A stretch of DNA of 43,799 nt, taken from the IMG/VR virus record IMGVR_UViG_3300048853_000016, positions 1 through 43,799 of that record; one strand, 5' to 3'. Of the stretch, positions 203-31,147 are shown piece by piece; the first letter of the stretch is position 1; every line of letters begins with the position of its first letter. Source of the DNA: a virus (Duplodnaviria > Caudoviricetes). A program made the position numbers and the translations under genes. The notes below the pieces were generated by a model. It was not told the DNA's origin. It saw only the letters and a program-made list of their open reading frames with translations, and made no database searches.

Positions 203-240
203 TGTGGCACGCGATTTTGGCACAATGTGCCATGTGTCAC
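203..240. repeat. Putative integrase arm-type sites (TGTGYCA cluster)
   Basis: Palindrome TGGCACA-A-TGTGCCA (218-232), TGTGTCAC (233-240) and TGGCAC (205-210) beside the att core. Confidence 0.45.
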
Positions 241-1259
241 GTGGGCATTTCGGTGCCCTGATACCCTGCAAGCTTGTTGATTGCAAGGCGCTTGCGCTCA
301 GCGGACGTGTGGGCATACCGCTGCGTCGTTTCGATGCGCTTGTGACCGAGCAGCTCCTGTGCCGTGCGAATGTCGGTGTGCAGGAGGATGTTCGTCGCGA
401 ACGTGTGACGCAGCACGTGAGGCACGTAGTTATGGTCGTCCGTCATGCCGAGGGCCGACTGCATCTTCCGCCAGTGCTCACGATACCACGCGGGCTTCTT
501 CTTAAAGAGCTTCGCGTCGGGATCATTGAGCGGCTTTGCCCTACGCTCCAGAACTTCCTTCGCCCTGGCCGTGAGCGGCACGTCGCGGTTCGGTCCCGCC
601 TTTGTGTCGTAGGTCCAGAGGTCAGCCATTCCGGCGTCACGCTTGGTGATCCTCAGCACTTCGCTCTGCCGGAAGCCGGTGTCGAGCGAAATGATGATGT
701 AGTCGCGCAGCTCATCCTCGGCGAACTCTTCGCACCACTTCAACATGGCCTCGATCTCGTCGTCCTCATAGAACCTGACGCGGGTCTCGCGCTCCTTGAT
801 CAGGCCCATGTCGAACAACTTGTCGAGTTTGCCAAGCTTGAACGCTTCCTTCGCCATGACAGAGAGCGTGGCAAGCTTGCGGTTGATCGTGGCATCCGAC
901 CGCTTCCAACCGGCGACCGTGGTCTTGATCGTCAGCGTGTCGGCATAGCAGAGCGACCGAACGTCCCGCATGGGGCCGAGGATGTCGACAACATGCTGAG
1001 AGTTGATGAGCGCTGTCTTTTCTCCCTTGGTGCCCTTCCAGCGCGTCTCAGCGACGAGATCGCGCAGCTCCTGCAGGGTCATCTTCTCCTCGACCTTCTT
1101 GGCCGTGGCATTGAGTTCGTACCTGCCCGAGAGAAGAGCGGCCTTGGTCTCAGCCTCCCATATCTCTGCATCCCGCCGGTTCGGGAAGTCCTTACGAAGC
1201 CTCTGTCCCTTGTAGGAAACAGAGGCTTGCCAAGATGTTCCTCGCTGTTTAATAGGCAT
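237..1259 (-). CDS. int: Tyrosine recombinase / phage integrase
   Basis: TGFRQSE (R), HVLRH (HxxR), LLGH..IETTQRY (H/Y); start MPIKQRG with AGAAGGAG RBS. Confidence 0.95.
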   Translation of the reverse strand: MPIKQRGTSWQASVSYKGQRLRKDFPNRRDAEIWEAETKAALLSGRYELNATAKKVEEKMTLQELRDLVAETRWKGTKGEKTALINSQHVVDILGPMRDVRSLCYADTLTIKTTVAGWKRSDATINRKLATLSVMAKEAFKLGKLDKLFDMGLIKERETRVRFYEDDEIEAMLKWCEEFAEDELRDYIIISLDTGFRQSEVLRITKRDAGMADLWTYDTKAGPNRDVPLTARAKEVLERRAKPLNDPDAKLFKKKPAWYREHWRKMQSALGMTDDHNYVPHVLRHTFATNILLHTDIRTAQELLGHKRIETTQRYAHTSAERKRLAINKLAGYQGTEMPT

Positions 1260-1274
1260 ACAGCTTCTCCTTCT

Positions 1275-1358
1275 GCCCAGTTGGTGAAACGGTAGACACA
1301 CGGGTTTTAGGTACCCGCGCCGAAAGGCATGGGGGTTCAAGTCCCTCACTGGGCACCA
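1275..1358 (+). tRNA. Phage-encoded tRNA-Leu, anticodon TAG (1308-1310)
   Basis: Acceptor GCCCAGT/ACTGGGC, D-loop GG, anticodon stem CGGGT/ACCCG with loop TTTAGGT, long variable arm, T-loop TTCAAGT, discriminator A, encoded CCA. Confidence 0.95.
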
Positions 1359-1369
1359 TTTTCCACGTG

Positions 1370-1531
1370 TTACTTTTTGGTGATTTCCGACCACTCAGGT
1401 GGCGGTTGGTTGGCCCCGGTTGTCAACCACAGGGCCATGTAGACGGCGGCCCCAGGTGGCCAGCCAGCTTGGACAAAGCGCTCCCTCCATGTTGCGGCGG
1501 ACAGGCCGAGAAAGAGCTTCTGCGTCTTCAT
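1370..1531 (-). CDS. Small hypothetical protein (53 aa, MKTQKLF...)
   Basis: TGATG overlap with the repressor stop codon. Confidence 0.4.
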   Translation of the reverse strand: MKTQKLFLGLSAATWRERFVQAGWPPGAAVYMALWLTTGANQPPPEWSEITKK

Positions 1532-1971
1532 CAGGCCCTCTTCGCCGCCGATTTTTCCGCAAGAGAACGCTGGTAAACGCCGTTCAGGTATTCCTTCGCG
1601 CTCGGGAAGCGGAAGTCCTCGACCACGGCGTTGGGGTCGATAGCTACGATGAGTTGGCGGGCGAGTTGCCTTCCCTTCGGGCTGAGGAACATGATCAGCC
1701 GACGCCCCTCGTTCGGATCGTTCGTGGCCTCGATAAGGCCATATCCCGGCTTTCCTAGGCGGTGCCACTCACCGAGCGCCGCGACGTTGCGCGAGCAAGA
1801 GGACTGCGACAGGCCCACCTCCTCCGCGAGCTGGGCCATTGTGATGCCCGGGCGAGCCATGACGACCAGAAAAACATGGGCCATCTGGATGGGCATCTGC
1901 TCGCCGCCTTTACGCAGCGTGCTGATCACCTGAAGGAGCTTCGAGAGGTTTGTGTTGAAAGGCATTGTCAT
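1531..1971 (-). CDS. MarR-family winged-helix regulator, probable prophage repressor
   Basis: PGITMAQLAEEVGLSQSSCSRNVAAL HTH and DPNEGRRLIMFLSPKG wing; next to integrase; start may be 1965. Confidence 0.85.
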   Translation of the reverse strand: MTMPFNTNLSKLLQVISTLRKGGEQMPIQMAHVFLVVMARPGITMAQLAEEVGLSQSSCSRNVAALGEWHRLGKPGYGLIEATNDPNEGRRLIMFLSPKGRQLARQLIVAIDPNAVVEDFRFPSAKEYLNGVYQRSLAEKSAAKRA

Positions 1972-2245
1972 TGTCCCCCGACCGGTAAATGTATTCTGCG
2001 TCATCAGATGTAGTCACAAGTGGTTTATAACGCCGATTGCGAAATACCTCAAGTGAGACCGTAACGTGAACATTCCCCAGCCACAGTTCGAGGTCTCTAG
2101 GGTGAAAACAGAGGTCTAAAAACCGTCTCCCGAACGTTGCAGCGGGATACTCGATGAACATGGAAATGGCAAGCAGGTCGAGGAAGACAGTTTTCATTTT
2201 TTGCAACCCCAGCAAACGTTTAGAGGGATAAATTTGGCAGGCCAT
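1910..2245 (-). CDS. Hypothetical protein upstream of repressor
   Basis: 111-aa ORF in phage orientation; start uncertain; overlaps the repressor 5' end. Confidence 0.35.
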   Translation of the reverse strand: MACQIYPSKRLLGLQKMKTVFLDLLAISMFIEYPAATFGRRFLDLCFHPRDLELWLGNVHVTVSLEVFRNRRYKPLVTTSDDAEYIYRSGDNDNAFQHKPLEAPSGDQHAA

Positions 2246-2308
2246 CCCCCCTTAGGCCTCACGCAGTACTAAAACAGGTTGTAAAAGTGACAACAAACCA
2301 ACCGGTTC

Positions 2309-2437
2309 TCAAGATCGGCCCTTTTTGGGTCGGCCTATCCTTGGTTTGGATATCACGCCATGTTGCAAGTGAGCAACATCCCGGTAGTGGATTTCAAATT
2401 TCAAGTCGTCTTCTTCACCTCCTTGGTTGTGAATCAT
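2309..2437 (-). CDS. Possible small basic protein (...KPRIGRPKKGRS)
   Basis: 42-aa ORF; internal AAGGAGGTG could serve a TTG start at 2404. Confidence 0.3.
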   Translation of the reverse strand: MIHNQGGEEDDLKFEIHYRDVAHLQHGVISKPRIGRPKKGRS

Positions 2438-2445
2438 GTGGATAA

Positions 2446-2511
2446 ATCCACGACCATCGAGGGCCGTGTTTGACCCTCTAGGTTTCGGCCTCCTGGCCTC
2501 TTCAGGTGGAT
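2446..2511 (-). ncRNA. Hammerhead ribozyme, type I
   Basis: Stem I AUCCAC/GUGGAU, core CUGAAGA, stem II GGCC-AGGA-GGCC, GAAA, stem III, GUC cleavage triplet at 2454-2452. Confidence 0.85.
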
Positions 2512-2672
2512 GCGATAGTGACTTTCCCGGCCCAGCCAGCGAGCAACCTTGCGACTGTCACAGCAGCGGCCTTTGTCGGATAGGTGTTCGGCAGCGGGTT
2601 GATCCATCGCGGCTGTAGGTGAGTGATCTGCCAAGCGCCCTTGGCCTTGCGGCTGACCTGATAGGTGCTCAT
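2502..2672 (-). CDS. Small early hypothetical protein (56 aa)
   Basis: GAGGA RBS and ATGA overlap with the upstream gene. Confidence 0.6.
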   Translation of the reverse strand: MSTYQVSRKAKGAWQITHLQPRWINPLPNTYPTKAAAVTVARLLAGWAGKVTIAST

Positions 2673-3037
2673 ACGCGGTCCTCGTTGCTGCACTGCATGA
2701 TGAAGTCTTCAAGCACGGCAGAGGCCTCGCGGGAGCGCTCGACGAGGGTCTCGCGGTCGCTGGATGGTGCACTCCCCGCGTCGAGAATGTCCCTAGCGTG
2801 GGCCATCGGAGCGAGAATGGCGTTCATGATCTGGAGCGCGGTGGCCTGATCAGTGAAATCGCCAATGGCCCTGACGTAAGACCCCGCGACCCCGTAGAGC
2901 GTCCAGAATGTCTCAAACTGGCGACCTTGTTCCTTCCAGTCATCACGGTCAGCCTCGAAGTCCTCATAGGTGCGATAGCTCACGCATGCCCCGTCGATCT
3001 CGATCACAGGACGAACTTCAAAGTACTGGAACTCCAT
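2669..3037 (-). CDS. Early hypothetical protein (122 aa)
   Basis: AAAGGA RBS before MEFQYFEV. Confidence 0.7.
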   Translation of the reverse strand: MEFQYFEVRPVIEIDGACVSYRTYEDFEADRDDWKEQGRQFETFWTLYGVAGSYVRAIGDFTDQATALQIMNAILAPMAHARDILDAGSAPSSDRETLVERSREASAVLEDFIMQCSNEDRV

Positions 3038-3054
3038 GTCTGTTCCTTTCGATT

Positions 3055-3120
3055 TGACAGCCATCATCAGGCGCGGGATGTCAGCCCGCACGACCGGCCC
3101 CTCCTGAGCCGGTTTCGGCA
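3055..3120 (-). ncRNA. Hammerhead ribozyme, type II with pseudoknot
   Basis: GCC-GAAA-CCGGCUC/GGGCCGG-UC, stem I GUGCGGG/CCCGCGC, CUGAUGA-U-GGC; loop UGACA pairs with 3' UGUCA; GUC at 3094-3092. Confidence 0.9.
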
Positions 3121-3125
3121 TTTGC

Positions 3126-3141
3126 TATGCACATGTGGATG
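3126..3141. promoter_or_regulatory. Operator-like 16-mer
   Basis: TATGCACATGTGGATG. Confidence 0.65.
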
Positions 3142-3196
3142 ATTGAGAGCGTGACTCGGCATTGCCCGCAGTCTGTCGCGCTGCTACTTGCCAAGT

Positions 3197-3610
3197 ATGG
3201 ACGCCAGATATGACATCGAGGGTGCGATTTTCATCCGTTTCGCGATGGTCGGTCGCCCCGTGCTCAACGGCCTCGCCGGGAAAGGGCAGCGACGAAAGCG
3301 TGATCCTCATTGCGCCACGCTATTCGCCCGCGACATCATCAATTCGATGCGGCGGGAAATCAGCTTCCGACAACAGGGTGAGACGGTGCAAGATGCTACC
3401 GTCGAGGAGTTCTTGGCCGGGGCTATCTGGGAAATCCCTATCGAGGATTTCGTGGTGCTTGTCGGCATCGACGCAACGCCGAGAGACGCGATGAAGCGGA
3501 GCATCTCAAAGCGGCTGGCCACGCGGCTAGAAGCGGAGTTCGAGCTCTTTTCCTCCCCTGCTTTCTACCACGGGCATAGCGGAACAGGTCCACTCGGCCC
3601 GAGGAAATAG
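3197..3610 (+). CDS. Hypothetical protein, counter-oriented moron
   Basis: 137-aa ORF filling the gap between two operator copies; TTGCCC-N17-TACTTG ends 6 nt before the ATG. Confidence 0.55.
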   Translation: MDARYDIEGAIFIRFAMVGRPVLNGLAGKGQRRKRDPHCATLFARDIINSMRREISFRQQGETVQDATVEEFLAGAIWEIPIEDFVVLVGIDATPRDAMKRSISKRLATRLEAEFELFSSPAFYHGHSGTGPLGPRK

Positions 3611-3618
3611 ACAGTTAC

Positions 3619-3634
3619 TATGCACATGTGGATA
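3619..3634. promoter_or_regulatory. Operator-like 16-mer
   Basis: TATGCACATGTGGATA. Confidence 0.7.
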
Positions 3635-3636
3635 AT

Positions 3637-4377
3637 TCAGCCCAACACAAAGCCCGAGCGGTCAGTCTTGGCCCTGCCCTTCGCATAAAGCCCAACGATC
3701 ACGCCCTTAGGGTCGAGGAAGCGCAGATCGGTTTCGTCACCGTCGATCACATCGCGGCAGGTTTCCCCGTACTGCGCCAGCTTGTCGACGAAATAGTCGC
3801 GAAGCTCCTTGGTCCGGTAGACGACAGCCATGTTAGCGCCGGTCTCTTTTGCAGCCGTGGTGACCGCATCGGCATAGGCCTTGTTCGCTTCCGAATAGGA
3901 CAGAACCAACGAGTAGTTGGTGGGAAGCTCACGATACACACGCTTGTAGATTTTCGTGTAATCGTAGAACTGCACCATCGGGAACGCTTCGAAGATCGAC
4001 TTGAAGCCATTCACAGGATGCGCGACCTCGAATTGAATGTCGCTGGTGCCGTTAAGTCGGACTGCAGGACGAACGCCCTTGCGCTCACAGTACCGAACGA
4101 ATGCAGCAATATCTGCAGCGAGATCGGTCATGAATGCAGTCCGATTGGCCAGATAACGCTTGGTCTTGTTGATGCGAGCGAGCTGGACGTTGTTGTAAGC
4201 GCCCCTGCCCGCAGTGTTCAGGCATCCTTGGACGCATCCAGCCGTTTCAGCCATCGGGCAGACGTTACCGCCAGCCAGATTGAACGGCGCGAGGTACATG
4301 ATGGCGGTCTCATACTCGCCATCACCTTTGACCGTCTTGGCATTGTTGCCGGAGCGGATGAGAGAACCTTTGAACAT
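3637..4377 (-). CDS. GP88-family phage protein (Cys cluster, radical-SAM-like)
   Basis: CPMAETAGCVQGC, VRLNGTSDI, FYDYTK and GDETDLRFLD motifs. Confidence 0.75.
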   Translation of the reverse strand: MFKGSLIRSGNNAKTVKGDGEYETAIMYLAPFNLAGGNVCPMAETAGCVQGCLNTAGRGAYNNVQLARINKTKRYLANRTAFMTDLAADIAAFVRYCERKGVRPAVRLNGTSDIQFEVAHPVNGFKSIFEAFPMVQFYDYTKIYKRVYRELPTNYSLVLSYSEANKAYADAVTTAAKETGANMAVVYRTKELRDYFVDKLAQYGETCRDVIDGDETDLRFLDPKGVIVGLYAKGRAKTDRSGFVLG

Positions 4378-4393
4378 GTCGAATGCCCTTTTC

Positions 4394-4409
4394 TATGCAC
4401 AGGTGGATA
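4394..4409. promoter_or_regulatory. Operator-like 16-mer
   Basis: TATGCACAGGTGGATA just upstream of the GP88 RBS. Confidence 0.7.
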
Positions 4410-4520
4410 GGACTAAGGACAGCTCGACTCGCGACAGCTGGTGATCCCAGCCCCCTGCCCTTAATGCTATCCACGTGGGATAGGCATGCGGATTACAAAG
4501 CCCTCCGCTGGTCTATTCGA

Positions 4521-4533
4521 TTGTCAAAGAACG
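4521..4533 (-). promoter_or_regulatory. boxA-like antitermination element of the early leader
   Basis: CGTTCTTTGACAA resembles rrn/lambda boxA (GCTCTTTAACA). Confidence 0.45.
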
Positions 4534-4588
4534 CAGCGCCTTCTTGCGTCGTTGCTGTTTGTGCATCCTTTGTGTCATATCGATTTGC

Positions 4589-4604
4589 TATGCACAAGTG
4601 GATA
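4589..4604. promoter_or_regulatory. Operator-like 16-mer at probable early host-RNAP promoter
   Basis: TATGCACAAGTGGATA upstream of the boxA-like element. Confidence 0.65.
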
Positions 4605-4671
4605 GTAACGAAAAACATCATCGATCTGCTAAGCGGTTGATTTTGATTCGATAAATTTTCCGCTGGCTGAA

Positions 4672-4860
4672 TCACCAATCGATTTGGTAGCCATGTATGG
4701 GAGCATCTACCGCACACCAATCACGTATGCGGGATATTGCGAAGCTCAGTTGATGCCCGCGATATAGCACCACCAAATCGTCTGCTTCGCGTCGCAAGGG
4801 CTGGGCAATGTAAGAGCGGAGTGCACCGCTCTCATCGACCACTTCAAAAACGAATCTCAT
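4672..4860 (-). CDS. Small hypothetical protein, possibly WYL-like
   Basis: 62-aa ORF; R..IAQP...LVVLY....SFAISRI pattern. Confidence 0.4.
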   Translation of the reverse strand: MRFVFEVVDESGALRSYIAQPLRREADDLVVLYRGHQLSFAISRIRDWCAVDAPIHGYQIDW

Positions 4861-5019
4861 AGCACTACCACTTAGAATTTAGGGGTATGTACGCGTGCGC
4901 TGCTTGAGCCAGCCTTGCGGCAATAGGGTGCCCCATTCAAGGGTGGCGTATTAACATAGCGAGGCGACCTCCGACCTCATCTAGCGCAATGCGGGGGCCT
5001 TTTAGTCGGTCGCTGAGGG

Positions 5020-5886
5020 CTACTCTTTCGGGAATGGCGGAGGGTCGAGCGGATAGACCAATCCCCTTGGCACATCGTCGGCCTTTTTTGGCGTGGGAAA
5101 TATGACAGGCCAAACCTGAAGAATTGCGGCCACCGCCAGTACGATCGTTAAGAGCACCATACTCCTTTGGATTCTTGTATTTTCGTTGTGCCGAGTGGTC
5201 TCTTGCTCTTCCTTGTCCAGAGTTGCGATCGCCTTAGGGGCCAGCCGGTATGCGATAGTGTTCTTACCCTGCACCAAATCGCCGGAGATCACTAGGGAGC
5301 TCAGCACGTAGCGATAATATGAGGAGAGATCATCTGCTTTCGGGTGAAGCGACCACCGGAGCCCGTACATAGCAGACATGATGCCAGTCGCCGAAGTCTC
5401 GTACTTGTGATCCTTGATTGTATTCTCCAGAATTATCTTAAGAACTGTGGTTCTGTCCTCTCGAGCAAAACTCCTCTTATTGTAAAAATACTGACATGTC
5501 TCGTTGATGTGGCGGTTAAAAAACGCATACTTGGTGTAATGACGTAATATAAACGAATGCGCAGGTAAGAAAAAGTAATCGTAGTCTTTATACCAGTGTC
5601 TAAACCTAAATGAATATTGATCAAAATACCTGAATGGAATGCTCGCTTCTGTGCCACCCCTTTTTTTCGATACTCCAACACCGGAGACGCCCTCCGGTTT
5701 CATCTCTCTCACGGCGAACATAGAGCCGGTCTTGTGTTCCAGGTAAGCGCCGTAATAGTCATTTTTTCTCGCCGCTTCTCCGGAGAGCGAGAATGGTCCC
5801 TTCGGCGGCGGCTTCTTTAACGCGATGCGTATTGCCCACTTCACTGCGGCCCGGCGAACCCAGCTTCTCACCAAACCATGACGCAT
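5020..5886 (-). CDS. AT-rich moron protein with wHTH-like region and C-terminal TM helix
   Basis: 288 aa; MVLLTIVLAVAAILQVWPVIF hydrophobic tail; visibly lower GC than core genes. Confidence 0.75.
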   Translation of the reverse strand: MRHGLVRSWVRRAAVKWAIRIALKKPPPKGPFSLSGEAARKNDYYGAYLEHKTGSMFAVREMKPEGVSGVGVSKKRGGTEASIPFRYFDQYSFRFRHWYKDYDYFFLPAHSFILRHYTKYAFFNRHINETCQYFYNKRSFAREDRTTVLKIILENTIKDHKYETSATGIMSAMYGLRWSLHPKADDLSSYYRYVLSSLVISGDLVQGKNTIAYRLAPKAIATLDKEEQETTRHNENTRIQRSMVLLTIVLAVAAILQVWPVIFPTPKKADDVPRGLVYPLDPPPFPKE

Positions 5887-6073
5887 AAGTACCCTCTACT
5901 GCGGTTGTGACTGCCACATATAACAACTCGAAAAAGCATTATCACCCCATGAAAGGCGAAGACCGAAACATAAACGAAATCACAATCGGTCCCGCGATCT
6001 TCGCGCTTTCATGTGGCCCACGCTAGATCAATCATCTGCTGCAGTGTAAAGGTAAATCAATCACTTAGACGGT

Positions 6074-6099
6074 CATGTGTCACGACCATGTGTCACGAC
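6074..6099. repeat. 13-bp tandem repeat CATGTGTCACGAC x2
   Basis: Exact copies at 6074-6086 and 6087-6099; CCATGTGTCACG also at 230-241. Confidence 0.85.
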
Positions 6100-6206
6100 T
6101 GGCACTGGAAGACCGACGAAAGCGTGAAATAGAGGGGGCACCGGGGGGAAGTCGCGGTTCTTCATATCTGATCTGTAGTCAGAAATTTTTGCAGCAAACA
6201 TTCCGG

Positions 6207-6410
6207 CTAGTGCGATGGGGGGTTCTGGTCGAGCAAGGCAAGAAGGTCTTTCCGGGTCAGGCGCCGATCCTGCATGAGGTCGAGTATCTTGAGGGCTGCG
6301 GCCTTGGCTTCCAGGCTGTTGGGACGACATCCGTGCCGAGAACACCAAGCCATCAGCACCGCCCGCATCACGAAAACGACATCCAAACGACCGTAACTTG
6401 GCTGAGCCAT
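6207..6410 (-). CDS. Small hypothetical protein (67 aa)
   Basis: AAGGGGAGG RBS before MAQPSYG. Confidence 0.55.
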   Translation of the reverse strand: MAQPSYGRLDVVFVMRAVLMAWCSRHGCRPNSLEAKAAALKILDLMQDRRLTRKDLLALLDQNPPSH

Positions 6411-6540
6411 AGCGTGCACCCTCCCCTTATAAACGGATAAATTGCGAGCATCAGCGGAAACAATCAAAGAAACGTTACTGGGCAACATTCCGCCCCTTCC
6501 GCGTTTACTCTTCCGGTGCACGAGGGCTGGGAGGTTCAGG

Positions 6541-6753
6541 ATGCCCAAGAAGAGCGAGCTTGAGATCGGTGACGAAGTGATCCTCCACGGGGAGATCGTC
6601 TGGATCGACGATGACTTCACCCCAAGGATACATGTCCAGGGCTGCGACTACCCCATCAGAGTCAGCGCATCGCTGGTGGAGGTGGTCGCAAAGGGGAAGA
6701 AGCCCAGGCACAGGATCAAGAAGCGGGAGGACTGGCTAGGACAGGGAGGTTAG
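6541..6753 (+). CDS. Small beta-barrel (KOW/SH3-like) hypothetical protein
   Basis: GGGAGG RBS; LEIGDEVILHGEIVWID pattern. Confidence 0.55.
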   Translation: MPKKSELEIGDEVILHGEIVWIDDDFTPRIHVQGCDYPIRVSASLVEVVAKGKKPRHRIKKREDWLGQGG

Positions 6754-6849
6754 GAACCCGTGAGCTAGGCCGATGACGATGATCGCGATGAAGATGTGCT
6801 TCTGATATTTGACGACGAACATGGTAGCCAGTGAGATGCTGATTGCCAT
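6736..6849 (-). CDS. Possible hydrophobic peptide (37 aa), positional analogue of T7 gp19.5
   Basis: MAISISLATMFVVKYQKHIFIAIIVIGLAHGFLTSLS downstream of the last phage promoter; no clear RBS. Confidence 0.3.
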   Translation of the reverse strand: MAISISLATMFVVKYQKHIFIAIIVIGLAHGFLTSLS

Positions 6850-6994
6850 TTAGGTTACCAAGAGGACACCGCTAGGTGGCCGATTGGTAACTATTGGTTT
6901 TACTCATCAATATCATTCTCATCAACAGCCTAAAGAGAAGTCGGAGGGGAGAGCGTATTCTCAGTTCCCCCCTCCTCCCCCTTTAGTCTCTCTC

Positions 6995-7011
6995 CATATA
7001 TCAGGGGTAAT
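6995..7011 (-). promoter_or_regulatory. Phage RNAP promoter after terL (phiOR-like)
   Basis: ATTACCCCTGATATATG, one of six near-identical copies. Confidence 0.85.
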
Positions 7012-7026
7012 CTCTGGTTGGTCTTC

Positions 7027-8721
7027 CTACCCGATGGAGAACCACCTCAGGTCGTTGCTGCCCTGGTCTCCCCCGATACCGAAGACGGTTTGGTGGAAGT
7101 TCTCCAGCTCTCGTCTCAGAAGCTCTGCCTTGTGGTCTTCCGCAGCCTTCTCGGTGTCTCGGGCCATCTGCTCGACCCAATAGCCGACAGCGATGGTCAG
7201 AGCGTCCAGACGGTCGTCGTGGACCAGAGCGCCCTTGTCGCGGGTGATGCGGGTAAGCTGGTAGAAGAGCTGGCGCTGCGGCTCAGATTCGAAGTCCTTC
7301 TTGAAAACCGAGGCGTCCACGATCAGGCGGTGCTGGTTCAGGACAGGTTCGAGCGTGTCGCAGATTCGGCGCTCCTTCTGGGTGGAGTGCTTGACCTCTT
7401 CGATGGTCACCGGATGGACGCGGGTGAAGACCGGCTTCAAGAGCTGCACGAACATGCCGTCGCCAAAGTTCGCCTCGACGATCACGCGGTTCACACCGTG
7501 CGTCTTGCCGAGCATGGCCAGCGATTTGAGGGTGTTCTCGGAGTAGCCCTCCCTGAAGCCACCGGAGGCGACGAGGAAGAGGTTGCCGTGCAGTATCTTG
7601 ACGATGGCATAAGCCGTCTCGTCCCCACCACGGCCCGAAGGGTCGATAGCCATGACACAGCCGGTGTACTCTGCCATTTCCCCTGCGACCCACATCGGGC
7701 GGTACAGCCGGTCGTTCTGAAGGCCCACGGTCGGGAGATCGGAGATCACCCTCTCGGGGTCGTTCGTCCAGACGATCTTGGCCGGTCCCATGCGGGGATC
7801 GAGGGTGGTGACCAGAAGGTCCGAGAGCTTGAGCGGGTATTTGTCTTGGTCGCTCAGCGAGGTATCGAGCATGAACTGCAAGGCGAAACCGGAGCGGCCA
7901 TAGGAGGCTTCGCGCTCGATCAGGTCCATCTCGCCGAAGCGAGCGGGATCGACGGGGTCTCGGGCCTTGGCACCATTGTCCATCAACCGGCCCACGTAAG
8001 GAGCCAGTCGGCCCTGGTAGCGCTCCGCATCGTTCGGGACGCGGGCGGGCCAGATTCGGATTTCGTAGCCGCGCTCGGGCAGTCGGTTATAGAGGCTCAT
8101 CTCGGTCTGGGGCGTGCCCAGGTAGATGATGCGGCTCGACGGCAGCGGCTTGAGGATAGCGTCGAACTCCTTCACGCGCTCGGAGAGCTGATCGCGCTGG
8201 AGTTGCGTCATGGAGTTATTCGGGACTTCCACGTCGTCGGCGATGATCACGTCTGCACGGGAACCGGCGAGCTGGCCGGTGATGCCGACCGATTTGACGG
8301 ATGGAGAGTGCGAGTTCGTGGCAGGACCAACGTCGAATGCGACCATCGAGTCACGCTGCCCTGGGCGGGGACGCAGATGAGCCAGGAGCGGCATCTCAGC
8401 GATCAAGCGCTTGGTAAACGAGGAGAACTGGTCGGCGCGGTCCTTGGACGCGGAGACGACGAGGATGTTGAGCTGCGGGTTGCAGTAGAGAAGCCAGACG
8501 ACGAAGGCCGAGGTGACGTAGGACTTGCCCACGCCTCGGAAGGCCTCGATCACGCAGCGCTTCGGGCCGTGCTGAAGGTACTGCGCAACGTCATACTGGA
8601 CGGGGGTCGGGTCGGGGAGATTCAGATGCTTCCAGACGACATAGAGGAAGTTCCTGAAATCCGCCTTGAGGGGGTCACTCGTTTGGAGATGAGTACCTGA
8701 ACGGAGTTGCTTGGTGGTCAT
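7027..8721 (-). CDS. terL: Terminase large subunit (T7 gp19-like)
   Basis: Walker A AFRGVGKS, IIADDVE, nuclease IDPSGRGGDE and HDDRLDAL. Confidence 0.96.
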   Translation of the reverse strand: MTTKQLRSGTHLQTSDPLKADFRNFLYVVWKHLNLPDPTPVQYDVAQYLQHGPKRCVIEAFRGVGKSYVTSAFVVWLLYCNPQLNILVVSASKDRADQFSSFTKRLIAEMPLLAHLRPRPGQRDSMVAFDVGPATNSHSPSVKSVGITGQLAGSRADVIIADDVEVPNNSMTQLQRDQLSERVKEFDAILKPLPSSRIIYLGTPQTEMSLYNRLPERGYEIRIWPARVPNDAERYQGRLAPYVGRLMDNGAKARDPVDPARFGEMDLIEREASYGRSGFALQFMLDTSLSDQDKYPLKLSDLLVTTLDPRMGPAKIVWTNDPERVISDLPTVGLQNDRLYRPMWVAGEMAEYTGCVMAIDPSGRGGDETAYAIVKILHGNLFLVASGGFREGYSENTLKSLAMLGKTHGVNRVIVEANFGDGMFVQLLKPVFTRVHPVTIEEVKHSTQKERRICDTLEPVLNQHRLIVDASVFKKDFESEPQRQLFYQLTRITRDKGALVHDDRLDALTIAVGYWVEQMARDTEKAAEDHKAELLRRELENFHQTVFGIGGDQGSNDLRWFSIG

Positions 8722-8722
8722 C

Positions 8723-8738
8723 TATCCACATATGCATA
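8723..8738. promoter_or_regulatory. Operator-like 16-mer over the terL RBS (inverted orientation)
   Basis: TATCCACATATGCATA. Confidence 0.6.
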
Positions 8739-8760
8739 GAAACGGCCATAGCGATTCATG

Positions 8761-8816
8761 GAGAGGCGTCAGATCTTCCGGCTAGGGTAGTACCAGCCAG
8801 GTCTCTGACGCCGCTC
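8761..8816. other. Long imperfect hairpin, possible RNase III site
   Basis: GGCGTCAGA...GGCT/AGCC...TCTGACGCC inverted repeat between terS and terL. Confidence 0.4.
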
Positions 8817-8847
8817 CTGAGTCAGTCCACACGCCGTTTTGACGGTT

Positions 8848-9075
8848 TTAATTGTAGAGGTTCGGCTCCTCTGCGGAGGTGAAGGGAAGCTCATCAGCCA
8901 GATTACCCAGCGGAGAGCCTTCCTTGGGGATTGCGTCGATGCCGTTATCCTTGAGGAACTGGCGAGCCACGTTCAGCTCTGCGGCAGTCACCTCACCACT
9001 ACGGACCTTTTCGAGCAGCACCTTCGCCATCTCGCCGTGGAGGAGCGAGAGGAGTTCATCAGTCTTGTTGCTCAT
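8848..9075 (-). CDS. terS: Terminase small subunit (T7 gp18-like)
   Basis: TAAELNVARQFLKDNGI motif; position before terL. Confidence 0.88.
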   Translation of the reverse strand: MSNKTDELLSLLHGEMAKVLLEKVRSGEVTAAELNVARQFLKDNGIDAIPKEGSPLGNLADELPFTSAEEPNLYN

Positions 9076-9326
9076 GGTTTGTAGCTCACATATGCGGTGA
9101 TAGCCGCGACAATGATCGCGAGCACCGCCATGATGTTGGTGAAGACGGACTGGTTGGTCGATTTCGACGACCGCATCGAGGCGATGTCCACCTCGACCTT
9201 CGATGTCCGTTGTTCGAGCGCGTCGATGCGCTGGCTCTGCGCGGAGGAGAGATTGATCAACGTATCAACCTTCCCCTCCAACCGGCCAAGCATCAGAAGC
9301 GTGTCCGATGCGTTGACCTGTTCCAT
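9072..9326 (-). CDS. Coiled-coil protein with C-terminal TM (holin/XhlA-like)
   Basis: LGRLEGKVD coiled coil and hydrophobic tail; at the T7 holin position. Confidence 0.6.
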   Translation of the reverse strand: MEQVNASDTLLMLGRLEGKVDTLINLSSAQSQRIDALEQRTSKVEVDIASMRSSKSTNQSVFTNIMAVLAIIVAAITAYVSYKP

Positions 9327-9718
9327 CAGAGACTAGCGCCCCAAAGCCAGAGATCATCGAGCTGCTCGGGCGGGATGCCGAGAGCAACCGCGAGGGACGC
9401 GATGTCAGGATGATCTCGCTCGAACGAGGTCGATTCCATCATCTCGATCTTCATCAGCTCTTTCTCGATGTCGGAGAGTGCGAGCGTGTCGATGGTGGCC
9501 GAGACGGATGTCTTGGTGATCCCGATGTTCGCTGCTGCCAGCCAGAACTGCCGGGAGGTCAGCGTCGGGAAGAATTTCGGGGGAGCGGTCCAGGCACCAT
9601 TCACCCACCTCTGAGAGGCGTGAAGGGGAGCGGACGGCACTTGAATGCCGCCCTCAGGTTCGGTCCCCATGAAGGTGCCGAGAAACCTGCCCTCCCCGTC
9701 TACGAAGAACTTTTCCAT
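9326..9718 (-). CDS. Tail-fibre-associated (chaperone-like) protein
   Basis: Directly follows the tail fibre; FERDHP...LGIPPEQLDDLW tail. Confidence 0.65.
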   Translation of the reverse strand: MEKFFVDGEGRFLGTFMGTEPEGGIQVPSAPLHASQRWVNGAWTAPPKFFPTLTSRQFWLAAANIGITKTSVSATIDTLALSDIEKELMKIEMMESTSFERDHPDIASLAVALGIPPEQLDDLWLWGASL

Positions 9719-11206
9719 TTACTTTCTCACCTTGATCTTCATGCGCCAGTTCGCCAACGTCGCGTAGAGGGCGTTACCGGTGTCCTGATTGAGGATGGCG
9801 GGGAACAGGTAGTTGCCGCTGTTCCCGTTCTGGACGCGGACGTAGACGTTCGTCGCATCGGCCCAGGCGATGTAACCAACCCACCGATCGGCATAGGTCG
9901 GGTAGTTGCTAAGCGGGCCAATCTCGTCATTCACCGCGTAGCCGTGCTCGGCGACCTTGCAGATCATGTACAGGTCGATCATCGACGGCTTGACGCCGAG
10001 GCCGTGCGCCCAGGTGATCAGACCAGCGAGCGTCGGCGTGAACTCGCCAGAGACGTTGGTCTCGACCTTGTCAGCCGTCATGATCGGGCCGAGGGTCGCA
10101 GCTACCTGCGCGAGCGTGGACGGGCGCATGTAGTTGTCCGTTCCGGTGTTCACCTGCGTCACGATGTAGCCGATGTTGCTATTCGTCGTATCGTATTCCG
10201 AGCGGAACAGGCGGGCGTTGATGTCGCCGTTGCTATCTCGCTGAGCGATGGTGTTGCCGGTAGACGCTGTCGCGGGGGCCGCTCCACGAAGGGTATCGCC
10301 GTCCAGCCCCGAGCCGTTGCCGTCAACAGTTTTGAGCTTCGTGAGCACGTCAGAGGCTGTGTAGGCAGAGGCATCGAGCTTCGCGCTGACGGTGGTCTTC
10401 GTGGCGAACGTCGCGTCGATCTGGGTCTTCGAATAGGTCTCCGTCTTTGTGTAGTAGCTCGACGGGTCGAACAAGGCAGCGTCCTGGGCGGACTGGGCAG
10501 CAGCCGCAGCAGAGGCCGCAGCATCCGCAGCCGAGTTCGCCGCGTTGGTCGCGGAGGTGGCCGCAGCGTTCTTCGACGAGAGTGCCGAGCTTGCAGAGTT
10601 GGCCGCGTTGGTTGCGGACGTAGCTGCTTCCGAGGCCTTCGTGGTTGCCGTGCTGGCTGAGTTCGCCGCATTCGTTGCCGAGGTCGCCGCTGCGTTCTTC
10701 GACGACAGAGCGTTGGACGCGGATGCCGAGGCCTCGTTCGCCTTCTGCGTGGCGATGTTCAGCTGCGAGGTCATACCGGTCTCGGCCCACCGCTTGTTCA
10801 CCGCATCCATGTCATTGACGGGATCAAGGATGTTCGAGATGCGCCGATTCAGCGCCGAGAAAGAGCCATCATCGGTTACGCCGAGCGAGGCTTCACCCAG
10901 ATCGAACGCTTCCTGGGCGAGGTAGAAGACCTGAATGGCCGACAGATCGAGATCGCTCTCAACCAGCGTGGAGCCATCAAGGAAGTCCACCAGAAGTTTA
11001 TCGCGAGGGGTCACACGCCGAACATCGACGATGCTGCCAGAGGGAGGCGCAGTCGTGAGCTTGACCTGGGTCGCGGAGTTCCAAGTGAACGCGACGAGGT
11101 TACCGTTCACCTTCACCTGAACGTGGTCTTTGTGGAGATATGGGAACGTCACGTTGAAGACGGTCGTGGTCCCGTTTCCAGGGTACTGTGCATACGCCAG
11201 AGCCAT
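9719..11206 (-). CDS. Tail fibre protein (T7 gp17-like N-terminal adaptor)
   Basis: GNGTTTVFNVTFPYL...RRVTP...LVDFLDGSTL adaptor and Ala/Ser/Thr/Asn stalk. Confidence 0.92.
   Translation of the reverse strand: MALAYAQYPGNGTTTVFNVTFPYLHKDHVQVKVNGNLVAFTWNSATQVKLTTAPPSGSIVDVRRVTPRDKLLVDFLDGSTLVESDLDLSAIQVFYLAQEAFDLGEASLGVTDDGSFSALNRRISNILDPVNDMDAVNKRWAETGMTSQLNIATQKANEASASASNALSSKNAAATSATNAANSASTATTKASEAATSATNAANSASSALSSKNAAATSATNAANSAADAAASAAAAAQSAQDAALFDPSSYYTKTETYSKTQIDATFATKTTVSAKLDASAYTASDVLTKLKTVDGNGSGLDGDTLRGAAPATASTGNTIAQRDSNGDINARLFRSEYDTTNSNIGYIVTQVNTGTDNYMRPSTLAQVAATLGPIMTADKVETNVSGEFTPTLAGLITWAHGLGVKPSMIDLYMICKVAEHGYAVNDEIGPLSNYPTYADRWVGYIAWADATNVYVRVQNGNSGNYLFPAILNQDTGNALYATLANWRMKIKVRK
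10496..10745 (-). repeat. Coding repeats in tail fibre stalk
   Basis: ALSSKNAAATSATNAANSA twice, AATSATNAANSA three times; bounds approximate. Confidence 0.8.
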
Positions 11207-11224
11207 GAAGTCTCTCTTTCATGT

Positions 11225-11263
11225 AAAAAAGAGACCCCCGGAAAGTACATTTCCGAGGGCCTC
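11225..11263 (-). terminator. Intrinsic terminator before the tail fibre gene
   Basis: GAGGCCCTCGGAAA...TTTCCGGGGGTCTC followed by T6. Confidence 0.8.
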
Positions 11264-11266
11264 GAG

Positions 11267-11282
11267 TATTCACAGGTGGATA
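11267..11282. promoter_or_regulatory. Operator-like 16-mer
   Basis: TATTCACAGGTGGATA between the gp16 stop and the terminator. Confidence 0.6.
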
Positions 11283-11285
11283 GGA

Positions 11286-14200
11286 TTAGTCACGCATCTC
11301 CCTTCTCGGGAGGCCTTGCGTGGCCCAGTTGAAGAACCACTGGAGGGGTAGCAGCCGCTGGAACGGTATGATGTCCATTGCGGCCTTCGCGTCGGGCCGG
11401 GAGTAGTCGTCACCAAATGCGCCCGTAATCGCGCCCGAGGTGGCCTTCGCGGCTTTGTCGAGCAGATCGAACGTTGGGTTGGCGAAGAGCACACCCGTCA
11501 GGCCGCTGGAGCGGTAATCGAGCGCGGTCTCGCCAGTCGTTAAGTAGGCCCCGGTGTCGAGCAACATCGGCAGCAGGGAGCTTTCCGACGAGCGCATGAT
11601 GCCCGCGATGCCGAGATTCTTCCACGATAGCCGCTCCTTGATCTTACGATCCCGGTCGGGGTCACCGACGAGCTGCATGTGCGTCTGGCCCCAGTAGACC
11701 AGAGCGCCTGTGATCGAGGCCAGCGTGACCTGAATACCCGCAGCCCAGTCCCGCTGGTTGATTCCCTGCAGGAGGCCGCGCGTCCAGGCACCGACCGCGA
11801 ACGAGCGGAACTGCAACAGCACCTTGCCGACAGGGCTGTTCATCCACTTGGCGAACTGGCCGACATCGTTCTCAAGGATCATATTGCGCACTGAACGGTT
11901 GAATGCGTCGGTGTAGGCCTTGCGGGCATCGGTCGGCCAATCGGCCACATTGAGCTTCGTCACCCGCTTGCCGTCAAAGACCGCGTGGTCGTTGTAGGCC
12001 TTCTTGATCAGGGCGATCTTCTCGTCGGTCAGGCCGAGCAGCTTCATCCGGTTCGGCGTCAGACGACCGGCCTTGGTACCCTTAGCGATCTGCCCGAACT
12101 TCTGAGCGAAGGCGCGAGCAGCCCACCGCTGGAGAGCGGTATTGATCGGGGCCATGCCCGACCCCAAAGCCACCGCTCGGTTGGCCGCATGGAGCCTCGG
12201 CTCGAGCCAGTCCATCGCCTTGCCGAGAGGCGTGGCGCTTCCGCTGGCGAGTGCCTGGGGAATACCGAAGGCGTCGGTCGGGATGTACGCGGCACCGATG
12301 TGGAAGTCACTTCCCGGCGCAACGAGATCGTCGATGTCATCCTGCAGCTCATCAACGAACTTCCCGCTCCGTGCCATGTTGATCAGGCGACGGAACTCAG
12401 GAAGTGCCATGTATGCGGTCTTGAAGCCCATCTGCGAGGGGATGCGAACCGCCTCCGGTATCTGTGAGAAGCCAACCTGCCCCATCAGGCGGGTGAAGTT
12501 GAAGTCGCGCAGGAGACGCATGAAACGCCCGAGATTGTTGTTCTCGTCCCAACGCGGGATGCCCATGATGGCGTCGTAGGCGAACCTGAGGTTCTTCTCG
12601 TCAGCGGCCGTATCGAGCCGTTTGTTGCCCCGCTTGCCCTCCTCCGAGGCCACGCCCTTCATCTTCTCGATCAGCACGTCCATGTCGGCGGAAGAGCGGA
12701 TGCCGTCCACCAGCAATTTGTCGGGATTGGTCGGGTCAGGAATCTTCACGCCCGCGAGCGCGATCTGACCGGACATGTTCCGGTTATAGAGGTGCATCAG
12801 CAGGTTGGCGTTGTTGACGTAGAAATCGGCGATCTTCACCTCGCGCACGGTCGTGCCCCACTCGTCGGAGAGGGTCATGGAGAAGTTCTCGTCCATGAGG
12901 ACGCGGTGCTTCAGCCTGGAGCTGCCACCCGCTTCCTTGTCGGACTGGGACTTGGTGCCCTTCAGGTTCTCGATGATTTCGTCAACCTCGGCCTCCGACA
13001 TCATGCTGCCACCGTCGAAGCGGGCATCGAGCAGCAGCTTGCGGAAATCGTCGAGGTCTTCGCCAGCCAGCGCACGGGACGCGCCAAGCTCCTGGCCGTG
13101 GCCAAGCTTGTACATCCGGTCGGCGATGGCATGGCCCATCTTCTCGGCGAGCTCGGGCTTGATGTTGGGCTGGTTCTTCTTGATCGCTTCGATGAACAGC
13201 CGGGAGACGCCGACATATTCGCCAGCGGAGTTCTTGCCGTAGCCAAAAGTGTTGATAAGGTCGATTGCGGCCTCGCGGTTGGTGATGCGCGGGACATAGT
13301 TCTCGACGCCCATCTCGGTGCGAGTGATGCCCAGGTCGCTTGCCTGTTTCCACCAGTCGCTCATCAAGGTGTTGAACTGAGCGCCCGCAGCCTGGACCTC
13401 CTTCGGGAACGCTTGCTTCGCCGCCAGGGTGTCAGCCCGCTGCCACGCGGTGATCATATCGGAAAACTTGTTCTGTTCCTCGACCGCGTTCCAGACGCTG
13501 ATCTTGTTGGCCTTACGGTAGGCCTGCCACTGCGCGTTGAAGGTCTTCGCCCAGGCATAGTTGGCTGACCGCTGGAGACGACGCTGGATTTCGGAGGCAG
13601 CGATCACGCTCGCTCGGTCCTTCAGGGCGTTACCGGCTGCGTCCTCGACGAGGTACTTTCCGATGCCACGGGTGAACGGGTTGGCGGACTTACCGAACTG
13701 TGCGGCGAGATCGAAGCGAACCTTGCCCCAGAACGTCTCGTACTCCTTGTCGAGTTCCTTCCAGGCCGCATGCTGGGCGGCTGCGTCCGACCGATACATC
13801 GGCTCGACGTAGTTGGTCTGGGCGGCGCCGACTGACTTAACACCGTAGATGGCCTTGGCTTCCTGCGTCATGGCGTGACCGACGTTCTCGATCACCTCGT
13901 TCTCCTCGGCGAGCGCCCGCGTCGGGTTGCGGTAGCCGTTGAAGATGCCACCCATGACGATGCCGGTCCCGATGGAATACATCAGGTCAGCCTTGGTCTT
14001 GGTCGGGTCAACGGCGTGAAGGGCACTGTCCACGGCCACGTTACCGGCTGCACCCTCCAGCGCACCGAGGGCGATCTTACCGACTCGCCCGAACCGAGCC
14101 GCCAGAGCTGCCGGGGCACCGAGGCCTCCGGTCGCCGCAGAGATGGCTGCGGTCGCCGCCCAGGCACCGGGGTCGGTCATGGCAGCAGCGATCTGCAGGG

Positions 14201-15143
14201 CAACGCCGGTACCTCCCATCTTGGTGAGCTTATCGTTCACCTCAAGCTGCCGCAGGATGCGGGCACGGATGGCATCGGCGTGTTCAGCGGAGACGGCATC
14301 CTCGAACTCCGAAAGAAGCTCGGTCGGGATGCCCTCCCCGACACGCTTGATCTCTGCTTCGTCCATGAAATAGGTCGTGTCGGGCGTGAAGTTGCCCAGC
14401 GCGCGCATCGGGGCGAGGATCGACCACTCGTTCTGGAGCGCGAGCTTGGCCCCTTCGATGATGCCGGGAGCATCCTCCTCGGCCTCCTCTTCAGCCTTCG
14501 TCTGCTCGATGCGCTCCGTCACGCTGTCGATGCTGCGATTAGTGTCCACCTCACTGAGCGTCACCGCTGTCTTGGTCGGGTCGATTCCGTCGTGGGCACG
14601 AAAGGAACTCGCCATATCGACCGAGCCAGTCACCTCACCCCCCGAATAGAGCTTCGGGGTGACCGAGGTATCGCCGAGTTTCTGCGCCCAGAGCTGCGCG
14701 AAGTCGCCAGCCGTGATGGTCATCGCCTCGCCTTTCCGGTCTGCCGGGAGATTGAGGGCGATAGCCTCGCTGCCGACGATCTGGTGCGCCGGGGTGTTGG
14801 GGTTCTTCAGGAACCTCAGAGCACCGCCCGCGCCCTGCTGGTGCGCCATGTAGATCTCACCGGCGGTCGGCTCACGACCAAGTCCACGGCGAAGGATGGT
14901 GCGGTTATCGCGGATGAGACGAACGCCAGCGTCAGCAGCGGCCTCGACATCGAACGGCGAGCGTCCGTTGCCGTACTGGCCCCAGGTCGAGGACAGGAAC
15001 TGGAACAGGCCCGAAGCGCTGGAATTGGGGTTTTTGGCGTTTGGATCGAGCTTGCTCTCCAGGTAGGCAATTCGGATGGCCGTATCGGGGTCTTCGCCGT
15101 AACGTCTCGCGGCGTTGGTGATGATAGCCTGGATGTCGGCCAT
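11286..15143 (-). CDS. Internal virion protein (gp16-like) with N-terminal lytic transglycosylase
   Basis: IAYLES...SASGLFQF..STW SLT motifs; 1285 aa; synteny. Confidence 0.9.
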   Translation of the reverse strand: MADIQAIITNAARRYGEDPDTAIRIAYLESKLDPNAKNPNSSASGLFQFLSSTWGQYGNGRSPFDVEAAADAGVRLIRDNRTILRRGLGREPTAGEIYMAHQQGAGGALRFLKNPNTPAHQIVGSEAIALNLPADRKGEAMTITAGDFAQLWAQKLGDTSVTPKLYSGGEVTGSVDMASSFRAHDGIDPTKTAVTLSEVDTNRSIDSVTERIEQTKAEEEAEEDAPGIIEGAKLALQNEWSILAPMRALGNFTPDTTYFMDEAEIKRVGEGIPTELLSEFEDAVSAEHADAIRARILRQLEVNDKLTKMGGTGVALQIAAAMTDPGAWAATAAISAATGGLGAPAALAARFGRVGKIALGALEGAAGNVAVDSALHAVDPTKTKADLMYSIGTGIVMGGIFNGYRNPTRALAEENEVIENVGHAMTQEAKAIYGVKSVGAAQTNYVEPMYRSDAAAQHAAWKELDKEYETFWGKVRFDLAAQFGKSANPFTRGIGKYLVEDAAGNALKDRASVIAASEIQRRLQRSANYAWAKTFNAQWQAYRKANKISVWNAVEEQNKFSDMITAWQRADTLAAKQAFPKEVQAAGAQFNTLMSDWWKQASDLGITRTEMGVENYVPRITNREAAIDLINTFGYGKNSAGEYVGVSRLFIEAIKKNQPNIKPELAEKMGHAIADRMYKLGHGQELGASRALAGEDLDDFRKLLLDARFDGGSMMSEAEVDEIIENLKGTKSQSDKEAGGSSRLKHRVLMDENFSMTLSDEWGTTVREVKIADFYVNNANLLMHLYNRNMSGQIALAGVKIPDPTNPDKLLVDGIRSSADMDVLIEKMKGVASEEGKRGNKRLDTAADEKNLRFAYDAIMGIPRWDENNNLGRFMRLLRDFNFTRLMGQVGFSQIPEAVRIPSQMGFKTAYMALPEFRRLINMARSGKFVDELQDDIDDLVAPGSDFHIGAAYIPTDAFGIPQALASGSATPLGKAMDWLEPRLHAANRAVALGSGMAPINTALQRWAARAFAQKFGQIAKGTKAGRLTPNRMKLLGLTDEKIALIKKAYNDHAVFDGKRVTKLNVADWPTDARKAYTDAFNRSVRNMILENDVGQFAKWMNSPVGKVLLQFRSFAVGAWTRGLLQGINQRDWAAGIQVTLASITGALVYWGQTHMQLVGDPDRDRKIKERLSWKNLGIAGIMRSSESSLLPMLLDTGAYLTTGETALDYRSSGLTGVLFANPTFDLLDKAAKATSGAITGAFGDDYSRPDAKAAMDIIPFQRLLPLQWFFNWATQGLPRREMRD

Positions 15144-15152
15144 TCACGTCTC

Positions 15153-17207: not shown

Positions 17208-17210
17208 AGA

Positions 17211-17744
17211 TTAATATCCTCTGTTCTTGCGGACCTTGTAGTCGTTGAAGGAGCTGAGTGCCGTCGAGCCGATTGCTAGGCCGGTGCTGACGAATGACGG
17301 GGCTGCTGACCGCTGGACGCCGTTGATTCGGTCCTGATTGCGCGTGCGGATTGCCCGCATCTCGCGATTGAGCTGGTTGAGCGACCATTCGGTCTGCTGA
17401 TCGACCCGGTCGATGGCGTTCGACTGCTGGGCCATGATGTCGCGCATCAAAGCATCGACGGAGACGCCCGATACACCAGCCTCACCGGCTGCAACCTCGG
17501 CTTTCGCCCTGGCTGCTCGGTGCTCCTTCATGATGTCGATCTTCTCGGCAGCGGCGGCTTCCTGCTCCTGCAGCATGCGCTGCTGAGTATCGAACTGCTC
17601 CTGCCGAGCTGCGGCGTTCGCGTTGGCTGCGTTCTGCCGGTAGTAGACGTTCTGCTGCTCAGCCGCTGCAGCCTCTGCTTGGTACCCGACGACCTGCGTG
17701 GCCGCACCGATGGCGAGGCCGATCATCGAGATGGGATCACACAT
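17211..17744 (-). CDS. Internal virion protein (gp14-like)
   Basis: MCDPIS start and GEAGVSGVSVD motif. Confidence 0.85.
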   Translation of the reverse strand: MCDPISMIGLAIGAATQVVGYQAEAAAAEQQNVYYRQNAANANAAARQEQFDTQQRMLQEQEAAAAEKIDIMKEHRAARAKAEVAAGEAGVSGVSVDALMRDIMAQQSNAIDRVDQQTEWSLNQLNREMRAIRTRNQDRINGVQRSAAPSFVSTGLAIGSTALSSFNDYKVRKNRGY

Positions 17745-26792: not shown

Positions 26793-26980
26793 TATTTGTG
26801 CGGGGTGCATCGCAAGTTGCGAGGATGGTGAGCTGGCGCTCCTCGCCAGGGCGATTGACGGCAATTCGCCAACAGCGGGCACGGTCTTTTATCGGGAGGA
26901 GCTTTCGGCCTTCCGGTCACAACCCTTACATGCGATAAGTGCGCTTCGACTCTGTAAAGCGGTTGTGCGAGAGGGCTGGC

Positions 26981-30749: not shown

Positions 30750-30751
30750 TC

Positions 30752-31123: not shown

Positions 31124-31124
31124 G

Positions 31125-31140: not shown

Positions 31141-31147
31141 CGTCAGA

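Follow-up and report, generated by a model that had tools for sequence, protein, structure and literature searches.

A pair of type II and type I hammerhead ribozymes in the early region of a temperate T7-like phage genome

The DNA analyzed here (the window) is the full 43,799 nt of IMG/VR record IMGVR_UViG_3300048853_000016, a complete 43.8-kb virus genome with most genes on the minus strand. The phage is temperate and T7-like (Autographiviridae), as seen from a single-subunit RNA polymerase, a T7 gene order and the presence of a MarR-like regulator together with an integrase. Among the genes identified are those for RNA polymerase (56-61% identity to its counterparts in related proviruses), primase/helicase, DNA polymerase, portal, capsid, tail and terminase, along with small ORFs. 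Each end of the record (about 70-140 and about 43665-43712) contains one half of a tRNA whose split falls at the anticodon arm, which indicates the integrated state; an intact tRNA copy is located between the regulator and integrase genes, where phage vB_RleA_TRX32-1 (TRX32-1) has a tRNA-Leu. Gene order, compared with that of Paadamvirus RHEph01, assigns positions 4900-2400 to the early region of the virion genome. Positions 1500-4500 were present in 10 DNA sequencing runs, which are soil and rhizosphere metagenomes. A scan for sigma-70 promoters returned two sites (3.9 expected). Two large genes run counter to the others, a serine-threonine kinase (phrog_2361, 26939-28138, plus strand) and a 374-aa gene (phrog_3364, 22475-23599, plus strand). 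Genes for ribonucleotide reductase, nucleotide pyrophosphohydrolase and thymidylate synthase at 28743-33903 (minus strand) are unannotated in RHEph01. The features of the early region and its surroundings are listed in Table 1.

Table 1. Features in and around the ribozyme locus of the window
Feature	Position	Strand	Remarks
Tyrosine integrase	237-1394	-	longest ORF; true start probably further inside
Intact tRNA copy	1275-1355	+	between MarR-like regulator and integrase
MarR-like regulator	1531-2004	-	downstream of the ribozyme pair
Hairpin GUGGA-UUUA-UCCAC	2438-2451	-	competes with type I stem I; would cap the 3' product
Type I hammerhead (predicted)	2446-2511	-	6-bp stem I, 4-bp stem II, extended stem III; descriptor scan, conserved in relatives
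56-aa ORF	2502-2672	-	45% identity to Rhizobium phage proteins
122-aa ORF	2669-3037	-	between type II and type I ribozymes
Shine-Dalgarno-like AAAGGA	3044-3049	-	5 nt past the pseudoknot strand, 6 nt ahead of AUG 3037
Type II hammerhead	3055-3119	-	sequence, Rfam RF02276, fold, covariation, similarity to a tested ribozyme
Operator-like palindrome	3126-3141	.	CAC-NN-GTG core; 5 nt from the type II ribozyme; 1 of 14 listed sites
140-aa gene, phrog_25064	3188-3610	+	reverse-oriented, between operator copies 3126-3141 and 3619-3634
Gp88 family (PF17338)	3637-4377	-	upstream early gene

The 122-aa protein had no Pfam or PHROG match, and an Atlas search returned no named family and no function; homologues were found at 88%, 47% and 36-37% identity, and a scan of metagenome contigs with it gave no matches. 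The UGA stop codon of the 56-aa ORF (2504-2502) is at the same time the UGA of the type I core, CUGAAGA. In TRX32-1 the stop codon is located about 35 nt upstream rather than inside that core. The reverse-oriented 140-aa gene is missing from close relatives, TRX32-1 among them, which have one operator copy, and in runs X3 and X7 a joint bypasses 3125-3619, leaving out this insertion.

The palindrome next to the type II ribozyme, at the 5-nt distance given in an earlier note on this DNA, belongs to a set of 14 listed sites (3140 to 43585); RHEph01 has 18. Many of the sites directly follow stop codons, at matching positions in the two phages, and their core is symmetric. Some are found inside the RNA and DNA polymerase genes, again at matching places in both. 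One is located just ahead of the post-capsid terminator, and none before the capsid gene. Distribution and symmetry fit a dimeric repressor, with the MarR-like protein as a candidate for binding, and by analogy we take the palindromes to resemble repressor sites of the roadblock type. A MarR-like repressor acting at such sites was proposed for temperate T7-like phages in the part of PMC10134795 consulted. A role as promoter of the phage RNA polymerase is less likely in view of the symmetric core, the copy before the post-capsid terminator and the lack of one before the capsid gene. Since the palindrome marks most gaps of the early region and is missing at the second type II ribozymes of three related loci (L124, L134 and L139), its closeness to the ribozyme points to no special link.

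Structure of the two hammerheads

The type II element starts with the 5' strand of a 3-bp stem II (GCC, 3119-3117), which pairs with GGC at 3062-3060. GAAA (3116-3113) and CUGAUGA (3070-3064) form the core and match the CUGANGA, GAAA and NUH requirements. Stem III has 8 bp (3113-3106/3100-3093) and stem I 7 bp (3091-3085/3077-3071), with loop I, CUGACAU, at 3084-3078. Loop I bases UGACA (3083-3079) and the 3' tail UGUCA (3059-3055) form a pseudoknot of 5 bp. Loops close both stem I and stem III, and stem II is open, which confirms the type II topology. Cleavage is predicted between C3092 and G3091, after GUC (3094-3092). The complete core, the pseudoknot and the cut were all placed here by the earlier note, and each of these readings was borne out; one extra U at 3063, between A9 and G10.1, had been overlooked. 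According to the consulted part of a review, a U at this place raised trans-cleavage by a viroid hammerhead 3-4-fold (PMC3705267).

Rfam family Hammerhead_II (RF02276, clan CL00010) matches 3052-3120 of the minus strand over its full model length with 38.9 bits, above the gathering score of 37 bits (E 3.6e-8 on the genome). The minimum-energy fold of the isolated element is the three-way junction, with an energy unremarkable against shuffled sequences (z -1.3). A descriptor scan of the window returned exactly two hammerheads, with scores of 16 and 13, and 60 order-3 Markov simulations of the window gave a single match, at score 11, and none above. The element is a genuine, complete hammerhead fold and very probably active as a self-cleaver. 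The predicted cut lies 54 nt ahead of the AUG of the 122-aa ORF, and most relatives have a purine-rich stretch at the Shine-Dalgarno place. In nested context folding models, stems I and III were stable in every local context (probability 0.84-0.99). Stem II, scored without a pseudoknot term as the models ignore pseudoknots, reached 0.23-0.60 if 5 nt of upstream sequence were included, and no more than 0.03 once this was extended to 25 nt or longer.

The type I hammerhead (2511-2446) has no match in Rfam, a point that the earlier note had missed. Its predicted cut, between C2452 and G2451, lies 640 nt downstream of the type II cut. The sequence that trails this cut can fold into the hairpin GUGGA-UUUA-UCCAC, which the earlier note had overlooked as well, and in all nine loci modeled the local hairpin outcompeted type I stem I. 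In the window, stem I has a modeled probability of 0.82-0.96 as long as no more than 4 nt past it have been transcribed; once 10 nt or more are present, the value is 0.03 or lower, because the hairpin forms in its place. Most relatives have a second CCAC or CAC repeat after the hairpin. The motif TTATCCACA, which also follows the type I cut and which we take to resemble a DnaA box, was discarded as such a box, as it is altered in L134, L135 and L139 while the hairpin is retained.

Judged by the folding models, type I cutting is probably partial or confined to a short window during transcription; alternatively, the hairpin may merely cap the product after a fast cut. The earlier note had expected the two ribozymes to release an RNA of about 640 nt with just the 122-aa and 56-aa ORFs. 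The spacing of the predicted cuts is indeed 640 nt and both ORFs lie inside, but with a conserved hairpin that outcompetes type I stem I in the models a discrete RNA of this size is less certain; it is plausible, not assured. No published account of a terminal type I ribozyme with a conserved competing hairpin was found in the literature consulted. Organism names looked up in Dataset S1 of PMC3088659 returned 0 hits.

Related loci and conservation

A distant BLAST search of positions 2300-3200 against 50,697 phage records gave three matches, TRX32-1 and two records of RHEph01, and the matched pieces coincide with the ribozymes. A survey of related phages for paired ribozymes, as the earlier note had suggested, located a type II ribozyme followed by a type I ribozyme in eight related loci: TRX32-1, RHEph01, L123, L124, L125, L134, L135 and L139. 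These loci contain two or three ribozymes each (a third copy in several), with 405-950 nt between the last pair. The predicted RNAs of RHEph01 and TRX32-1 are 526 nt and 760 nt long. All eight viral stretches with the type I pattern have an upstream partner, which is type II in seven. The genes between the ribozymes, and their order, vary among close phages.

Covariation was examined in 12 type II copies from the window and the eight related loci (22 pairs, 264 cells). Overall, 99.2% of the cells pair and eight of the 22 pairs changed on both sides, and the catalytic core is invariant while the stems vary in compensating pairs, which points to selection on RNA function. For the pseudoknot, 98.3% of the cells are paired; its central pair is A-U in the window and G-C in the other 11 copies, so that its one two-sided change is due to the window's copy alone. 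The covariation score was reached by none of 500 shuffles, a test inflated by relatedness among the sequences, and slid registers were 25-47% paired. Among the core changes listed for close soil relatives, only the free position N7 is affected.

L158 and L159, where 122-aa homologues stand in prophage context, gave no ribozyme, and neither did L152 (terminase-MarR-integrase) or L127-L130 (56-aa homologues); the ribozymes are dispensable in the wider group. Searches with the MarR-like protein added no ribozyme locus: a single-protein scan of viral contigs gave no matches, and a family-wide search matched eight of 400 genomes (G296 not scored). Five of seven stretches from the latter search have no nearby integrase and are probably not prophages; of the other two, L156 breaks off some 640 nt upstream of MarR, and L152, a prophage, has no hammerhead.

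An estimated 2300 or so stored viral stretches match a pattern written for this ribozyme variant, with at least 120 loci from four of 64 parts of the collection. The 120 matching loci yielded 154 distinct type II ribozymes. A Shine-Dalgarno sequence with a start codon follows within 60 nt in 82% of them, vs 23% for positions chosen at random, and 129 of the 154 can form a pseudoknot of 4 bp or longer, vs about 71 with swapped and 55 with shuffled tails. The extra U is common among the phage copies of this sample, a frequency biased by the pattern, which required the U.

Larger arrangements were also observed. One contig (IMGVR_UViG_3300033112_000310, contig 2308-17926, loci L026-L033) contains at least 18 type II hammerheads and one type III on one strand, mostly 300-1100 nt apart, with a short common motif, AAGCGGCAC, after many copies. 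Arrays of seven, eight, five and four type II hammerheads within 4-8 kb occur in L008, L065, L050 and L080, respectively. L135 has a triple of types III, II and I at 1876-4066, with an ArdA gene (PF07275) ahead of the type II copy. In RHEph01 a type III hammerhead (L002, 662-712) lies antisense within the annotated gp002 (469-714, minus strand), which may therefore not be a real gene.

Likely role of cleavage

The reading preferred here, with a probability of roughly 0.6, is that the type II hammerhead cuts the long early transcript co-transcriptionally between 3092 and 3091 and so gives rise to a separate, hairpin-capped message. The copy in the window would cut fast and constitutively, with the pseudoknot holding its weak 3-bp stem II. 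Hammerhead cleavage leaves 5'-OH and 2',3'-cyclic phosphate ends. The upstream product would accordingly end in stem III with a cyclic phosphate, and the downstream product would begin with a 5'-OH end, the first base of which forms a pair in the 7-bp stem I. The type II topology would place stem I at the 5' extreme of the downstream product, then the pseudoknot strand and, 5 nt later, the Shine-Dalgarno sequence. RNase E and RNase J both need an unpaired 5' end, and a paired end resists them. Such ends would make the stability and translation of the small genes independent of the upstream RNA and of host RNase III, most probably via 5' protection. As type I probably cuts only a fraction of the transcripts, the 640-nt RNA would occur side by side with longer read-through RNAs. 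That the early transcript is processed independently of the host, as the earlier note had also favored, is supported by homology to an Agrobacterium cluster that cleaves (see below), and the discrete 640-nt product is the weaker part of that proposal.

Cleavage might instead destabilize the RNA by creating an entry point for RNases, for a quick shut-off of early genes or limited read-through into the MarR-integrase module. RNase J (PF17770) is present in 120 of 121 genomes of the Rhizobiaceae family, so a 5'-OH end could speed decay, as described for glmS in the consulted part of PMC6765202; furthermore, in the mapped loci no further ribozyme lies between the type I copy and MarR. The type II topology, however, gives a paired hairpin at the new 5' end, and type II ribozymes systematically sit directly ahead of ribosome-binding sites. 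Destabilization is for these reasons unlikely, and protection is the most likely direction of the effect of a hairpin end with 5'-OH.

Less likely still is that the ribozymes serve as short repeats for DNA recombination, by which accessory genes are swapped while cutting is incidental. The differences in cargo genes, gene order, ribozyme number (two or three) and spacing between close phages would agree with this, as would the 122-aa homologue of L124 with its own ribozyme in front and the identical 3' halves of the first two ribozymes around an ArdA-like gene in L160. The invariant core and the compensating stem changes nevertheless argue for selection on RNA; the 122-aa gene is also found without a preceding ribozyme, and the single insertion mapped in the window has operators rather than ribozymes at its borders. 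That the copy is a relic, decayed or misfolding, with little cutting in vivo is improbable: stem II is weak in the context models, stem I is four bases short in two related soil runs (X3 and X5, where about 4 bp remain) and some relatives lack ribozymes, yet the core in the window is intact, its pseudoknot is the sole compensated variant among the 12 copies and a close counterpart is active.

Circularization of the 640-nt RNA, by RtcB or by the ribozyme parts themselves, is very improbable, and the earlier note's circularizable bicistronic RNA is not upheld. The chemistry of the two ends is compatible with joining, and a computed junction rebuilds a complete type II hammerhead in nine of nine loci; this hybrid junction, however, stems from the shared GCC-GAAA consensus and would re-open the circle. 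Pairing between the ends of the window's RNA amounts to 17.5 expected pairs, vs a maximum of 16.6 among 45 random 640-nt segments; against a better-matched control of 2183 genome windows, the end duplex is at the 6.6th percentile, the fold with the stem I hairpin is only 2.3 kcal/mol above the minimum and in four of eight relatives the end pairing is at most 0.6 pairs and so is not conserved. RtcB is found in eight of the 121 family genomes, which represent likely hosts (one of them, G083, is unpublished), compared with 120 for RNase J; it is missing from G005, the host of a related prophage. No RNA ligase was recognized among the 58 phage ORFs scanned. In retrozyme- and viroid-like elements one ribozyme is repeated at both ends, with conserved end pairing and an available ligase. 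The locus has two types with different stems I, a hybrid junction and neither of the latter traits. In the consulted portions of PMC3088659, circular or spliced products were sought in 2011 and none detected (data not shown). It is hardly credible, finally, that the excised two-gene RNA rebuilds the hybrid hammerhead as a reversible, protein-free circular mRNA, with the hairpin (here together with ribosomes stopping in the second core) gating release against read-through into the MarR-integrase lysogeny module. If true, either a circle or a lysis-lysogeny switch would be a novelty; both are unlikely.

Comparison with known ribozyme clusters

Perreault et al. (2011; PMC3088659, as far as consulted) described type II hammerheads with a pseudoknot between loop I and the tail, and prophage clusters that flank variable genes. 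They proposed processing into gene-length mRNAs and also raised circles and splicing. Three clusters cleaved in vitro in that study; all three ribozymes of the cluster in the Agrobacterium tumefaciens C58 prophage cut with the expected fragment sizes, and the cluster was also active in E. coli. A primer from Table S1 of the same source leads to a single viral record, L160, in which MarR, tRNA and integrase lie downstream of three type II ribozymes spaced at 940 and 486 nt; these spacings are the sizes labeled on the Agrobacterium gel of Fig S2. The third ribozyme of L160 is identical to the type II ribozyme of the window in 53 of 70 aligned bases, and both have the extra U, a 3-bp stem II, a 7-bp stem I and the pseudoknot. 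Both also share the MarR-tRNA-integrase context (MarR 45%, integrase 33% identical) with small genes between ribozymes, and the second ribozyme of L160 is preceded by the same operator-like motif as in the window. They differ in arrangement: L160 has three type II ribozymes around an ArdA gene and another gene, the window a type II and a type I ribozyme around two ORFs, and nothing in L160 corresponds to the terminal type I ribozyme. The first two L160 ribozymes (2549-3546) look as if a duplication had brought the gene that they flank.

Compared with RF02276, the window passes the gathering score with type II topology and pseudoknot and adds the U between A9 and G10.1. The Azorhizobium caulinodans prophage (L138) is a T7-like provirus with an RNA polymerase 44% identical to that of the window. 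The pair tested there is type III, 889 nt apart (PMC3088659 Fig S1), whereas that of the window is type II and type I. A counterpart to the type I ribozyme of the window is situated 1208 nt downstream, past the 665-nt end of the tested construct described in the consulted part of that source, and is without the competing hairpin. RHEph01 and TRX32-1 share the type II and type I pair, the operator, the 56-aa homologue and the MarR-integrase order with the window; their first cargo genes differ, and RHEph01 adds a third ribozyme, the one of type III. The ribozymes are unannotated in both records, and the word ribozyme is missing from the main texts, as consulted, of PMC8631192 (RHEph01 and TRX32-1) and PMC10134795.

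In T7, the early RNA is processed by RNase III, a host protein, which leaves a 5' phosphate, and RiboJ is an engineered ribozyme insulator. The likeness of the locus to these, a cut ahead of a ribosome-binding site by which a gene is uncoupled from the RNA upstream, is an analogy and not membership. The closer match is the cluster described in 2011: two same-strand hammerheads enclose two ORFs, and the genes that they flank differ from phage to phage. Both the arrangement and the two hypotheses, processing and circles, have been published since then, and the window adds an ordinary further example. What such ribozymes are for was still undefined in the consulted part of a 2019 review (PMC6765202), and the locus leaves that question unanswered. 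The cultured phages RHEph01 and TRX32-1 carry the unannotated pair, which makes the purpose testable by core mutation in a growing phage. The one detail for which the literature consulted gave no description is the type I ribozyme at the end of the pair, whose competing hairpin is conserved.
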